Source: Eledone cirrhosa (lineage: Eukaryota). From it: a DNA stretch of 64,000 bases. The notes beneath the pieces were generated by a model, which was not told the origin of the DNA, searched no databases, and saw nothing but the letters and a program-made list of their open reading frames with translations. The position numbers and the translations under genes were made by a program. The DNA lies in NCBI GenBank assembly GCA_964016885.1, contig OZ024741.1, forward strand, positions 137,764,001 to 137,828,000. The letters are read 5' to 3'. This document shows positions 8,891 to 51,243 of the stretch, in pieces; the first letter of the stretch is position 1, and each line of letters opens with the position of its first letter.

Positions 8891-9470
8891 AAATTAGAAT
8901 TGGAGCTCTGAAATAGCAATATATATATGGATGTATATATAATGTATTTTGCAATACACTTTATGCTTAATTAAAAGCATTTTGAAGACCGTAAGCTATT
9001 GTTTTAAAGTAGTGACAACTCACTTACTTTGATCTCAGCAAACAGGGGAGATAAGCCGACAAGTCTTGTTTCGCTTTGGTTGAAGCTTATCAAGGCCAAC
9101 TACCCCTCCTGTCTACCGAGATCACTGATGTTATATTCTTATAGAAATCTAGTAAATAATCAGGAGCTGATTATGCAGAGCGGTTGTTGGTCAGGCAGAA
9201 ATTAAAAATTAGAATTGGAGCTCTGAAATAGCAATATATATATGGATGTATATATAATGTATTTTGCAATACACTTTATGCTTAATTAAAAGCAGTTTGA
9301 CAAATTCACTTACTTTGATCTCAGCAAACAGGGGAGATAAGCCGACAAGTCTTGTTTCGCTTTGGTAAAGTAAGTGAATTTGTCACTACTTTAAAACAAT
9401 AGCTTACGGTCTTCAAAATGCTTTTAATTAAGCATAAAGTGTATTGCAAAATACATTATATATACATCCA
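8891..9470 (-). mobile_element. HHR-bearing non-coding ~315-nt unit (retrozyme/solo-pLTR-like), locus A
   Basis: Direct repeat 8891-8979 = 9206-9294 (period 315); partial third copy 9300-9365; inverted fragment 9366-9470; flanked by (TA)n; homologous to 26806-27264 and 50875-51243. Confidence 0.75.
9054..9097 (-). ncRNA. Type I hammerhead ribozyme, U3:A8 core variant
   Basis: Reverse complement: ggcc-TTGATAA-gctt(caacca)aagc-GAAA-caa(gac)ttg-TC-ggct; stem I extends via acagg.../...cctgt. Confidence 0.75.
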
Positions 9471-9802
9471 TATATATATATATATATATAAAAATATATA
9501 TATATATATATACATACATTCATATTAAAACAATCGAGATGAAACAAGAGTGTATTTGAATACATATAAAAAGGAGAAAACTCATTGCTAGAGCAGTCGT
9601 TAAAACAACTAAATGCTGTCAAAGACAGCGATGGGCAAATATGCCTCAGAAGACAGAGACCAGCAAATAGTGTTCAACAGAGAGACAATGCACAAGGTGG
9701 GTGACAGGCAGACGAAATGTAGAAAAGACTGAAAGAGGAGGAGAACAAGGAAATATACATACATAACTTTGGAGCGAAAGGACATGCGTAAGAACGTATT
9801 GA

Positions 9803-10010
9803 TATAGGCACAAGGCCAGCAATTTGGGGGGGGAGAGGAAAATCGACTAAGTCGACCCCAGTGCATGACTGGTACTTCATTTTATCGACCCAATAAGGAA
9901 GAATGGCAAAGTTAACCACGGTGGGATTTGAACTCAAATCATAAAGGGCCGTAACTCTATGCTGCAAAGTATGGCGGCCGACTCCATACCGATATTGCCA
10001 ATCAACCTAC
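9803..10010 (-). mobile_element. tRNA-type SINE (family A)
   Basis: GGCACAAGGCCAGCAATT...CTGGTACTT..TTTATCGACCC...GGCAAAGTTAAC...GATTTGAACTC consensus, shared by more than 10 copies in the window. Confidence 0.8.
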
Positions 10011-10192
10011 CTCACCGTATTAAATATGATAGGATACAATTGATTAATAATTGAACGATTGTGAGTCACAATTAAAACTTGAGTTAACTATTTTTGTACT
10101 AAAGTTTGCATCAGTGGAATCCAGCTCATGTGGAAAACAATTTGGTCAGAATTACTTGTCCCATATACATAAAAAGCTGGCCTATTGGATAT

Positions 10193-10320
10193 AATTGTTT
10201 CTACTTTGGCACAAGGCCAGCAATTACCCAGTGCATTACTGGTACTTTATTTTATCGATCCCGTAACGATGAAAGGCAAAGTTAACCTCGGCGGGATTTG
10301 AACTCAGAATGGCAAAGCAA
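10193..10320 (-). mobile_element. SINE family A, 5'-truncated
   Basis: Same consensus as 61968-62155. Confidence 0.8.
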
Positions 10321-11182
10321 CTTGAACTTTGCGTCAAAGCAACTTGAACTTTGACGATTTAAGGTCTATAAACTAGCTGTCAAATATTGAGATCCATTAT
10401 TCCGCTACCCACTACATCCACATTTTCTTTCCCAGGAAGAAATCAACTGCATAAATTGAAGTCTTCCAGGTTTACATGCCCAAGACACGCTGTCTGTCAC
10501 TGCGATACCCTTACGACTCAATCCGGATTCAAAGGTCCATGGCGTATATATAAAAAAAGATGAAATATTAAGAAAAAAAGTTTTTCGATAGAAGGATCCT
10601 TGAGTTTAGATATTTTTCAAAAGATAGATTTCTAAAAAGAAATTTTTATTAAAAATGCTACTCATCTATATTGAGAATCTATGAATACATTGATACGTGA
10701 AAACTAGTCATTAGTGAATGGAGAGTTGATTTAAGATTCTGTGATTAATTAATTTTATTCCTGGATAAGGTTTATAACCAGCGGTATAATTAATATATAT
10801 TATCATTTATCTATATCTTTTGCTAATTGACAATCTGAAAGTCAAATAAATCTCTACTAGTAATATGATATGATTTACAGCATAAGTAGAAGCTAAACTA
10901 CCTTTCCATCATTTAGCCAGCATCAGTGAAATTCAGACCACATTAACCTATGTCTACTTGTCAGTGTAAATCATCCCTTAATTCCTAATAGAGTGCCAGG
11001 ATCACCATAGTGATATTTTAACCTTGGTGGCCATCCATCTGCAGGTTTGATCATACCCGATTTTTCCACACACAAAGAGAGAGAGAGAGAGAGAGAGAGA
11101 GAGAGAGAGAGAGAGAGAGAGAAGAGAGAGAGAGAGAGAGAGAGAGAGAGAGAGAGAGAGAGAGAGAGAGAGAGAGAGAGAG

Positions 11183-48101: not shown

Positions 48102-48291
48102 TATTTAGCAATCAGTTATAATTTAAAGTGCTAATCATTAAAGGAGCTATTTATAAGTAGAAGGGGTATTTAATTTGTTGGAAGTCCTACAAATATAAAT
48201 GTTTATAACTGATTTAGAGCATTCAACAGTTACTGGATTAAATATTCAATGATATTAAATAAATGGAAACTATATTTATAAAACCATATTT

Positions 48292-48354
48292 ATTTTATTA
48301 TATATATATTTCAAGGGTACCAAGACACATTAGTACGCTTTCATCAGATAAAAT
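48292..48354 (-). ncRNA. Type I hammerhead ribozyme, PLE5 5' pLTR
   Basis: Reverse complement: attttat-CTGATGA-aagcgtactaa(tgtgtc)ttggtaccctt-GAAA-tatatata-TA-ataaaat. Confidence 0.75.
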
Positions 48355-49007
48355 ACAAAGTTTATTTTATAAATAGAGACATACCCATGAAAATCATACC
48401 TTATCGGTTGGATATTCACTGGATAGCGGAAATATATTAGGGATTTTTCAAACTTATGTGTGAATATGCAAATGAATATGTAAATAATTGAAAAACAACC
48501 GTTTATTTAAACGATTATGGAGAGAGAGAGAGAGAGAGAGAGAGAGAGAGAAAGAGAGAGAGAGAGAGGGAGAGAGAGGGAGAGAGGGAGAGAGAGAGAG
48601 AGAGAGAGAGAGAGGATATAAGAGGAGAAGGATAAAATAGTGCGAGAGAGAGAGAGATAAGAAAGAAACAAGAGAAGATGAATAAAAACTCACATAACGT
48701 TAATTTGAGGGAAATATATTCTAAGTATATATCTTAATAGTACGTGTATTTACGATTATTAGTTGTTTAAAATGTGTTTAGTACCCTTGAAATATATATA
48801 ATAAATATGGTTTCATAAATATAGTTTCCATTTATTTAATATCATTGAATATTTACTCCAGTAACTTGTTGAGTGCTCTAAATCAGTTATAAACATATAC
48901 ATTTGTCGGACTTCCAACAAATTAAATATCCCTTCTACTTATATATATATATATATATATATATATATATATATATATATATATATATATATATATATAT
49001 ATATATA

Positions 49008-49197
49008 TAGGGTGTCCCAAAAGTCATACAGGAGTTTTAGCTTTTATTAACTTCCTGAATTGTTCAGATTGATGTATGACATTTGGATACAACTTAAAGA
49101 ACATAATGGAAATTATTTTGCACTCGTCAATCCTTGTCACCCCTCTACACTACTTCTTTCAAATGGCCGCCATTTTCGCCCTGTGTGACCTTTAGGC
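49008..49197. mobile_element. Possible Tc1/mariner-type MITE remnant in (TA)n
   Basis: Starts TA|TAGGGTGTCCCAAAAGTCA (Tc1-like TIR); partial complement TGACCTTTAGG at the other end. Confidence 0.35.
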
Positions 49198-50874
49198 TAT
49201 ATATATATATATATATATATATATATATATATATATATATATATATATATATATATATATATATATAAAACATGAGAAGAATGAATACTGCGTGGTTGCA
49301 CATGGGTTACATATGATAAAAATAGTCCTTCATCAGTGATTTTCCAACCTTCATTTGTATTTTATAGCTTTAAAAATCATATACCTCCAGTTGGTGCGAG
49401 CAATAGTTAAATAAAGCTATTGGGACAAGTAAATTGCGTAAAGCGAGCGAGACAAGTAAACAAACATAGAAGGATAGCAACGCAAAGATAGGAACAAACA
49501 AGCACATGGGAGTCCGATCAGCTTAAGCTGTGTGGATTTCATGAGCGAGAGACAACAGACTGTGCGACGCGAGTGAGGTGTGAGCAAGAAAGGACCCCAC
49601 TTCAGGCCAAACGGGAGCAAGTGAGAAGGGGAGAAGCAGAGAGTGAGTGAGTGGAAGTGCGAGGAAGAGGCCAGTCGAGAGAAAATGTAACTGACAGGGG
49701 GGGGGCGAAAGAAGGTGAGAGAAACAGAGAGAGGGGGGAAGCAGTAAGAGAGAAACAGACAAACGCAGCTGGGTAAAATCTCTCTCTATATATATATGCG
49801 TGTGTGTGCGTGCGTGTGTGTGTGTGTGTGTGTGTGTGTGTGTGTGTGTGTGTGCGTGTGTATGTGTGTGTCTATGTATGTGTGTGTATGTATGTGCGCG
49901 CGCGCGTGTGTGTGTGAGTGTTTGTGTGCGTGTGCGTGTGTATTTCATATAGGAATTACTTTTTCTGGATTTCAGTGTTCATCAGTGTTCAGTGCTTGAA
50001 TTATTAGAATTCAAAGTGATAGCGCTTACAGGATTTTCAAGTTATGTGTGCTTAGCACTATGTTTCAATTTCTCTGCTCTCTTGTCAGAAAACTAATCAT
50101 AGCACACGTCATGTTAGGTCGTACTGTGAAACATTTCGCATCAATCTCCATCTCAGATTTCATTGTTGTTTTCGTCCTCGGAGATGTACAAGTGAGATGG
50201 TTTTTACTACTCGACAGCAAGAACATTTTACAGAGGATGGTTTAGACATGTATTATTGCTTTATAGCAGGCATAGGCGACTTTTTTTGAGAAGAGGGCTG
50301 CATGAAATACGGCTCATCATCAGGCGGGGTGCAAGCGCTAATTTACATTCGTGCCCACATTTAAAAAAGGGTGGTAACTCAGTTTGTTTTGATTTGTTTC
50401 TTCAGAATTCGTACACGTTGTTTTCCTCGATCGTAAAAATGATAGAAAGATAACTTGCAACTGAAACGTCGGGGTAAAAAATCAGAAAGATTTCACTTAC
50501 GCGAGCCATTCAGAAAGCTTCGTGGGCCGCAGGTTGCCCGTGACGTTTTTATAGACATCACGAGATATTTTGATGATGTTAATAGGACAACGTTGTGTTT
50601 GATGAAAATTGATGTCGATTTTGCCTCAAATGATACAAATCATCCGATTGCCTTAAGAAACAAAATCCACCGAGCTGGGTATGATTCGAGGGAAAGAATA
50701 TTCTAGCTATGACTTTTAAAATCGAGACCAAAATTGCCAAAAAAACTTTTCTGGCAAAGTATAGACTTGAGAGCCTATTACGGGATCACGAGTAGAAATC
50801 ACAACATACTCAATAAAATATATAGTAAACTGTAAAGAAGTGTCCTGATTGTTAACAGAGTGACAACCATCACA

Positions 50875-51243
50875 TCGAAAATAAGTAAGTGACATAGTTA
50901 CTACTTTAAAACAAATAGCGAATGGTGTTCTAAATGTTTTTAATTAAACATACGCTATATTGCCAAATGTACTATACATACATTCATGTAGACATCGCTA
51001 ATACCTAATTTTTGTTGTACTGGCAATCACTCTGTATAATCAGCTCCTGATTAATACTGGAATTCTATAAGAATCTAATTTTTATAATTTTCGGTGGAGG
51101 CAGGGGAGTGTGTGGTTTTGATAAACGCCAACCACCGAGAAACAGACTGTCAATCACTCTCCTTTTATTTTCTTCGAAAATAAGTAAGTAACATAGTCAC
51201 TACTTTAAAACTAATAGCGAATGGTCTTCTAAATGTTTTTAAT
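50875..51243 (+). mobile_element. HHR-bearing non-coding ~299-nt unit, locus C
   Basis: TCGAAAATAAGTAAGT...CTAAATGTTTTTAAT at 50875 and 51174; homologous to loci A and B but starts at a different phase. Confidence 0.72.
51112..51157 (+). ncRNA. Type I hammerhead ribozyme, U3:A8 core variant
   Basis: gtggtt-TTGATAA-a.cg(ccaaccac)cg.a-GAAA-cagactg-TC-aatcac; stem II is weak. Confidence 0.62.

Follow-up and report, generated by a model that had tools for sequence, protein, structure and literature searches.

A dispersed hammerhead-bearing repeat of Eledone cirrhosa, a new family of animal non-LTR retrozymes with insertion ends of the Penelope type

Three short homologous loci (A, B and C) in a 64,000-nt stretch of Eledone cirrhosa DNA, the window analysed here, raise the question of whether a self-cleaving and possibly circular RNA has been copied into this genome by the machinery of Penelope-like elements (PLE). 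The life cycle of retrozymes, in which an RNA is cut, circularised and copied by PLE, was reportedly proposed between 2014 and 2020, and is said to have been backed in 2026 by co-occurrence and homology. The link between PLE and retrozymes has so far been proposed mostly on indirect grounds, and the family described here makes the footprint of the enzyme legible in thousands of insertions. The loci are members of a new family within a known class, the animal non-LTR retrozymes, and we consider it probable that their RNA, predicted to be self-cleaving and likely circularised, was copied repeatedly into (TA)n by a PLE reverse transcriptase (RT)/endonuclease.

An earlier note on this DNA had reported three homologous loci, which were found at the places claimed (Table 1) and represent one each of three subfamilies of a non-coding repeat of ~316-318 nt, dispersed through the E. 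cirrhosa genome. Periods of 315, 318 and 299 nt were confirmed (terminal overlaps 58/58, 54/56 and 66/70), the last of these being due to a 19-nt deletion in the C copy, in which a stretch present in its relatives is missing. As had been described, the sequence 3' of the hammerhead continues into the sequence 5' of it, the TAATCAG-nnn-CTGATTA hairpin is present at all three loci, and no ORF of at least 110 aa overlaps any of them. The statement that each locus holds slightly more than one unit suits B and fails for A, with its longer main arm, and the supposed inverted 5' fragments at two loci turned out to be second arms with 3' ends of their own, that of A reaching (TA)n and that of B being truncated.

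Table 1. Features of the three loci, in positions of the window.
Locus	Feature	Position	Strand	Remarks
A	Main arm	8888..9366	-	~1.6 units, young subfamily A; insertion L061; internal deletion of ~30 nt; spans the predicted cleavage site twice (between 9344 and 9343, and between 9058 and 9057); 3' terminus at the long (tail) end, then (TA)n
A	Second (inverted) arm	9367..9479	+	Short 3' end, then (TA)n
A	Type I hammerhead	9030..9125	-	Core of the U3-A8 type, stem I long and extended; cut predicted after 9058
A	Hairpin TAATCAG-nnn-CTGATTA	9157..9173	-	
B	Inverted arm	26806..26891	-	3' end lost; truncated against the neighbouring PLE, adjoining its inverted terminal repeat (26532-26806)
B	Main arm	26892..27265	+	Subfamily B copy of 1.17 units with a period of 318 nt; finishes at the long 3' end, followed by (TA)n
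B	Hairpin TAATCAG-nnn-CTGATTA	26982..26998	+	
B	Type I hammerhead	27030..27130	+	U3-A8 core; predicted cut after 27097
B	"Tail" of 26 nt separating the two favoured 3' ends	27240..27265	+	Short end ~27239, long end 27265
C	Old copy, subfamily C	50875..51243	+	Best relatives 78-90%; both ends non-standard
C	Hairpin TAATCAG-nnn-CTGATTA	51037..51053	+	
C	Hammerhead, decayed	51085..51180	+	Retains the core letters, with a weakened stem II; cleavage predicted after 51151

Genome-wide, exact matches to the tail numbered 4,618 (control, 0), and the hairpin occurred at 6,292 sites against 60 for its control. Real monomers measure 311-324 nt, within the retrozyme range of ~150-450 bp, copies of the young subfamily A share 98-99% identity, and tandem copies with at least two complete ribozymes are present; the longest array comprises 26 units and is internally heterogeneous, with higher-order repetition, and a second long array, at C1:6.52 Mb, has at least six. 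The tail pattern gave no matches in metagenome or viral contigs. Contigs from two runs of unrecorded kind (X1 and X4) also contained the element and were left out of the evidence. Neither this family nor retrozyme insertion ends were described in the literature searched (retrozyme, Penelope, octopus repeats), in which the family thus seems to be undescribed; related repeats may be among those tabulated in the supplement of PMC7229834.

All three loci keep the core letters of a type I hammerhead as its U3-A8 variant (UUGAUAA...GAAA...GUC), and to that extent the earlier note was right; the ribozymes of A and B fold (z -5.75 and -6.36), and that of C does not (z -0.55) and is therefore considered decayed. 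Each unit of the family carries a type I hammerhead, as retrozymes do, with an Rfam score below gathering (HH9 at A, 27 bits against 52); Rfam returned no hammerhead match at B or C, and its other matches on the loci were microsatellite-driven miRNAs. Selection is shown to act on the hammerhead fold: its paired positions covary from one subfamily to another, and the core pair 3-8 among them is found as U3-A8 in 219, C3-G8 in 22 and neither in 14 of the 255 parsed copies. Over 12 recurrent haplotypes, 94.8% of cells were paired, stems I-III were 100% paired, and both sides had changed in 9 of 24 pairs; stem III is stable, at 3-6 bp. The 13 core positions are untouched by the 22 recurrent alleles of subfamily A, and the core is intact in 128 of 147 subfamily-A copies. 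The RNA motif is predicted to be self-cleaving, and circular folding of five real monomers gave z values of -4.2 to -7.0.

Differing start phases had been offered as a sign of a circle. The phases do differ, but because of 5' truncation, and they lose their force as a circle argument: variation is confined to the 5' ends, and the 3' ends occupy two constant positions separated by 26 nt, in most cases at (TA)n (108/111 long ends and 74/92 short ends). Such tracts would mask a target-site duplication, which in retrozymes is large when present. Fixed 3' and variable 5' ends indicate that the family spread by retrotransposition, and its ends are not of the LTR type. Both ends could be classified in 65 two-armed insertions (24 further ones, with one unclassified end, lie outside this number), of which 62 combined a long with a short end, two were long/long and one was short/short. 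One long and one short end per two-armed insertion is the PLE "tail" signature, the tail being defined by two adjacent RT start sites in the parts of the PLE literature used here (PMC11167929; PMC8557442), to which the insertion ends correspond; the inverted arm and AT-rich target are likewise those of PLE-mobilised elements. At the predicted cut (0/+1), 5' ends are weakly enriched (6/244, expected 1.5, P 0.005; coming from 5 insertions, P 0.02), and some other 5-nt windows contain more of them, a point against the reading that we prefer.

The two fixed 3' ends, the (TA)n targets, the inverted arms and the lack of an attached ORF speak for the earlier proposal of a non-autonomous repeat using PLE machinery. 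This proposal would fail if the unit belonged to an autonomous PLE, as its pLTR or 3' end, and if the loci were ordinary 5'-truncated copies of that element. The unit does have the tail, inversion and target signature of PLEs, and PLE ORF fragments lie close to several loci, but we consider this reading highly improbable: a sense ORF was joined to the unit at 0/130 loci, against 12/14 true pLTRs, and such a PLE ORF lay within 800 nt upstream at one locus of the 130 (L063), with a second arm in between; no joined RT and GIY-YIG ORF, the mark of an autonomous PLE, was found, and upstream of a unit there follows a further unit, as many as 26 times. The pLTR reading is already largely refuted. Spread as a DNA-level satellite, through recombination or extrachromosomal DNA circles and with an incidental ribozyme-like motif, would suit the higher-order repetition of the 26-unit array and the variants common to adjacent units alone; the two fixed 3' ends, one per arm, the variable 5' ends, the TA targets and the covarying ribozyme leave it a very slim chance. 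For the dispersed copies it is refuted by their polar ends, and it may explain the growth of long arrays.

The PLE label of the neighbouring elements rests on their RT-then-GIY-YIG order and terminal anatomy, because Pfam and homologues were uninformative: Pfam did not recognise the local RT fragments and gave one weak GIY-YIG match, and the homologue search returned unnamed or invertebrate proteins and no clade. Two candidate links to a partner were discarded. In insertion L192 an arm of 4.3 units is joined head to head with a truncated PLE ORF, and the other 19 loci of that PLE family carry no unit; in L122, fused to another element, both ends are long, so deletion explains the fusion equally well.

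The nature of the template was approached through the cleavage site and the haplotypes. Read-through of the site occurs in 77 of 105 standard arms, in 16 of these at least twice, and in subfamily A 162 of 163 crossings are scar-free (no indel), the remaining junction having a 3-nt insertion. Alleles are shared in 177/218 comparisons within an arm, 132/160 between arms and 713/8218 between insertions (81-83% vs 9%), with 24 haplotypes over 13 sites, and 103 variants are fixed in every unit, across 40 of the 63 multi-copy subfamily-A insertions. That one continuous RNA was copied per insertion is well supported, and this RNA was likely a circle; scar-free read-through and haplotype sharing within an insertion form a better circle argument than start phases. 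Five of the 63 insertions (L073, L084, L113, L183 and L232) carry index-matched variants, which the two arms have at corresponding units and which some other units lack, those of L073 and L084 falling on core positions 15.1 and 3, and point to mixed multimers as templates. Such variants are impossible from a monomer circle without gene conversion, and thus count against our best explanation. We judge the chances to be even that two-armed insertions record rolling-circle copying by a PLE enzyme of one ribozyme RNA circle from two simultaneous start sites, mixed templates being multimeric circles held by dead ribozymes.

These index-matched variants would be expected if the same PLE-mobilised repeat were copied from linear, un- or partly cleaved multimeric transcripts of tandem arrays, with no circle. 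Long arrays are available for this, three multi-unit arms (L016, L017 and L076) terminate exactly at the cleavage site, and the one PLE assayed in vitro could do without cleavage and mainly used unprocessed RNA, according to the part of that study consulted (PMC11167929). However, to yield the 103 all-unit variants and the 24 haplotypes, monomers would have had to become multimers again and again, the 26-unit array is not uniform itself, and compensatory changes accompany the conservation of the hammerhead fold; we hold this alternative to be unlikely, though worth serious attention. Circle-like products could also arise from a cleaved linear monomer if the RT jumped precisely from its 5' end to its 3' end, which the extended stem I would keep together, and the weak enrichment of 5' ends there and the single 3-nt insertion at a junction would agree with such jumps. 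The scar-free state of all other junctions and the passage of the site by about three quarters of arms speak against it, as does a linear, TA-targeted, two-armed neighbour element without tandem units, which has a fixed 5' end and no such continuation in the 12 loci fetched, and we regard jumping as improbable.

The preferred reading, a PLE-copied retrozyme circle, would proceed as follows. A genomic copy with two ribozymes would be transcribed, and its hammerheads, according to the predicted fold, would excise a monomer, the long stem I holding both ends; the monomer would then be ligated to a circle, by analogy with coral, mussel and axolotl retrozymes. A PLE protein would presumably nick both strands of a TA tract, and cDNA synthesis would begin inside the RNA at two positions separated by 26 nt, located some 140 and 170 nt 3' of the cut. 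Each cDNA would extend upstream for a variable length, mostly over the cleavage junction, and the two would join head to head. The two fixed ends and the two-armed architecture are observed in the insertions. Copies with at least two ribozymes could start the cycle anew, and a few arrays may then enlarge by recombination.

In the sections consulted, metazoan non-LTR retrozymes (Cervera and de la Pena, 2020; PMC7229834) also have a non-coding unit of 150-450 bp with one type I hammerhead each, dimers to multimers, low GC, a self-paired predicted circle and PLEs in the same genome. For them cleavage and circles were shown and PLE mobilisation was proposed, whereas here it is PLE-type insertion ends that are seen in the genome; the ~316-nt repeat also differs in its mostly U3-A8 core and stable stem III. 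Vertebrate retrozymes were likewise concluded to use PLE machinery, with dispersed monomers and rarer multimers (Li, Clavereau and Pollet, 2026; bioRxiv 10.64898/2026.07.22.740005), on the evidence of co-occurrence and pLTR homology in Xenopus, insertion ends not being treated in the sections examined. Unlike the Xenopus retrozymes, our unit resembles none of five local PLE termini (pLTRs) above shuffles. From what we consulted on Poseidon of Anolis (PMC11167929) and PLE anatomy (PMC8557442), the repeat shares with PLEs the two adjacent RT starts, extension of both strands, AT-rich or (TA)n targets, partial tandems and the inverted 5'-truncated arm, and departs from them in having no ORF, a tail of 26 nt instead of 30-40, and a three-stem hammerhead instead of the minimal PLE form. 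The non-autonomous PLEs of Chlamys, such as MRC1, are described in part of PMC8557442 as resembling their autonomous partner at the 3' end and, in contrast to this repeat, as mostly without hammerheads.

If two-armed insertions do record rolling-circle copying from two starts at once, the genome itself would testify directly to the circular intermediate that has been modelled for the transposition of retrozymes and PLEs. Subfamily A offers a natural 316-nt substrate with known start sites for testing PLE RT on RNA circles and the role of PLE hammerheads. The U3-A8 core is a natural covariation, reported to be active in vitro and present in Schistosoma PLEs, in the portions of the ribozyme literature drawn on here (PMC3088659; PMC4209133); unlike the U3-A8 hammerheads reported, this repeat holds both core pairs, U3-A8 and C3-G8, within one family.

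Homology among the three repeat loci of the window (A, B and C, which also name subfamilies), as proposed in the earlier note, was confirmed (identity 86% for A/B, 69% for A/C and 71% for B/C), as were their periods of 315, 318 and 299 nt, respectively, the last resulting from a 19-nt deletion private to C; none holds an ORF of at least 110 aa. Each had been described as slightly more than one unit, which fails for A, where a second arm (run of units) accompanies some 1.6 units. The type I hammerhead claimed for all three stands as to the core, in which U3-A8 replaces C3-G8, and as to a good fold in A and B, not in C. 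The repeat family is real and constitutes a new family of a known kind, the retrozyme; a literature search found no published description of it or of retrozyme insertion ends, in line with the earlier suggestion of a possibly undescribed family.

First-look searches of the 3.0 Gb genome returned 1,232, 1,617 and 3,129 candidates for queries A, B and C, respectively. A 25-nt tail pattern had 4,618 exact matches (control, 0) and the TAATCAG-nnn-CTGATTA hairpin 6,292 (control, 60), both counting units rather than insertions. Since the closest relatives are 98-99% identical for A, 94-97% for B and 78-90% for C, the family spread in several waves. Divergent tandem relatives of the unit (67-74% identity), found beside other insertions (L069:2190-3136 and L258:2-961), represent further old subfamilies. 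Among the arrays fetched, the longest runs to 26 units in a single arm, with higher-order repetition and most ribozyme cores intact (L091:937-9180, G000:C1:293.64 Mb), and is possibly a source locus.

Covariation between U3-A8 and C3-G8 is reported to be natural, and active in vitro (PMC3088659; PMC4209133); among 255 parsed copies, 219 carry U3-A8, 22 C3-G8 and 14 neither. Across 12 core haplotypes, each present in at least 2 loci, stems I, II and III are paired in every cell, with both-side changes in 9 of 24 pairs; the covariation score was matched by 0 of 500 shuffles, a control inflated by related sequences; one of the haplotypes had also supplied the structure. The 13 core positions are free of all 22 recurrent subfamily-A alleles, and circular folding of five real monomers gave z values of -4.2 to -7.0, stem I joining both ends. 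The predicted hammerhead fold is under selection.

Insertion ends were examined in three locus sets: the best matches to B (30), the best to A (41 after de-duplication) and a place-ordered set that takes in 98 of the 100 tail matches heading the list for contig C1. This last set has 61 loci, or 59 for the 3'-end, two-arm and pLTR tallies, from which two probable segmental duplicates were dropped; two loci are common to more than one set. As sets B and A were chosen for loci of more than one unit, and the place-ordered set for an intact tail, long ends are over-counted; short ends were not subject to selection. The 3' ends lie at the end of the tail (long) or 26 nt before it (short), and subfamily C has the same two ends. 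One long and one short end occur in 62 of 65 two-armed (head-to-head) insertions with both ends classifiable, 24 more having one unclassified end, and (TA)n adjoins 108/111 long and 74/92 short ends. Insertions of Penelope-like elements (PLEs) display a tail at one end and an inverted truncated arm (PMC8557442), and a PLE RT uses two adjacent internal start sites and extends both strands (PMC11167929). Because the tail-defined ends and inverted arm match these reports, the retrozyme insertions bear a PLE signature, and PLE-type mobilisation of the unit is very probable.

The predicted cut lies upstream of the start sites by ~140-170 nt; a cleaved linear monomer would therefore yield arms stopping at the cut. 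However, the cut is crossed by 77 of 105 standard arms, at least twice in 16, and 162 of 163 subfamily-A crossings are indel-free. At 13 diagnostic sites, scored for pairs with the minor allele, alleles agree in 177/218 comparisons within an arm, 132/160 between arms of one insertion and 713/8,218 between insertions, and of 63 multi-copy insertions, 40 carry variants (103 in total) fixed in every unit; thus, the two arms have usually been made by repeated copying of a single haplotype, which is what rolling on a monomer circle predicts. A nearby element offers a natural picture of a linear template: it is two-armed, targets TA, has a fixed 5' end and shows no continuation in 12/12 loci, a comparison favouring full-length copies because the query contained that 5' end.

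A circular template for the unit is moderately probable. Evidence against a pure monomer circle is that 28 variants are partly shared, and that in five insertions (L073, L084, L113, L183 and L232) the variant has a matching unit index in the two arms without being in all units. These five call for multimers of mixed composition, either linear or circular, or for gene conversion. In L073 and L084 the variant breaks the core, which fits, in small numbers, with dead ribozymes holding units together. Mild enrichment of 5' ends at the cut (6/244; 1.5 expected), three of these arms having already crossed a site, suggests that some templates are linear with a cleaved 5' end; in the sole PLE tested in vitro, as reported in PMC11167929, cleavage was not required.

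The alternative raised earlier, that the unit is the terminal repeat (pLTR) of an autonomous PLE with an attached ORF, was rejected: a sense PLE frame lies within 800 nt upstream in 1 of 130 loci, where a second arm intervenes, versus 12 of 14 for a true pLTR of the window. No similarity above shuffles was detected between the unit and five local PLE termini. The family behaves like a metazoan non-LTR retrozyme as outlined in PMC7229834 and is one by every testable feature, with cleavage and circle predicted. For vertebrate retrozymes, a 2026 preprint uses co-occurrence and pLTR homology to argue that they are PLE sequences of the non-autonomous type (bioRxiv 10.64898/2026.07.22.740005); here, mechanistic evidence for retrozyme copying is read from insertion ends.

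Features of the window, with genomic loci fetched for comparison
Feature	Position	Strand	Loci
Locus A	8891-9470	-	
Locus B	26806-27264	+	
Locus C	50875-51243	+	
PLE frames, RT then GIY-YIG	4112-6300, 21416-22509, 25782-26489, 35576-36592, 46656-47417		
3' UTR/pLTR of abundant autonomous PLE, with minimal hammerhead	8428-8829	+	L239-L252
Young non-coding element (~200-250 nt) in TA tracts	8233-8430	-	L253-L264
Nested PLE insertion	20154-23665		
PLE	24394-26806	-	
Its inverted terminal arm	26532-26806		
Short interspersed repeat	9800-10340, 13454-13671, 27476-27663, 29535-29704, 31992-32214, 53772-54158, 61963-62156		

The window, with repeats of octopus-like appearance, is rich in PLEs, many beside (TA)n. 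The pLTR and locus A share one TA tract, and the pLTR is joined head to head to the young non-coding element, which displays head-to-head arms, two 3' ends ~50 nt apart and a fixed 5' end, lacks tandem units and, by eye, a hammerhead, and resembles a linear, non-autonomous passenger of PLEs. The nested PLE has a terminal region with ~140-nt tandem repeats and long inverted arms, and the minus-strand PLE abuts locus B through its inverted arm, facing 3' ends being absent on both sides of the junction. The short interspersed repeat, present in many copies, is presumably a SINE. Elsewhere, a 4.3-unit arm is joined head to head to a 5'-truncated PLE ORF at 4-nt microhomology (L192:1808-4285, G000:C28), possibly by co-insertion or later deletion. 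Finally, a 163-nt deletion derivative without hammerhead is repeated in tandem ~3.7 times, the array stopping at the tail and (TA)n (L173:1408-2010); if RNA was its template, no ribozyme took part in its mobilisation.
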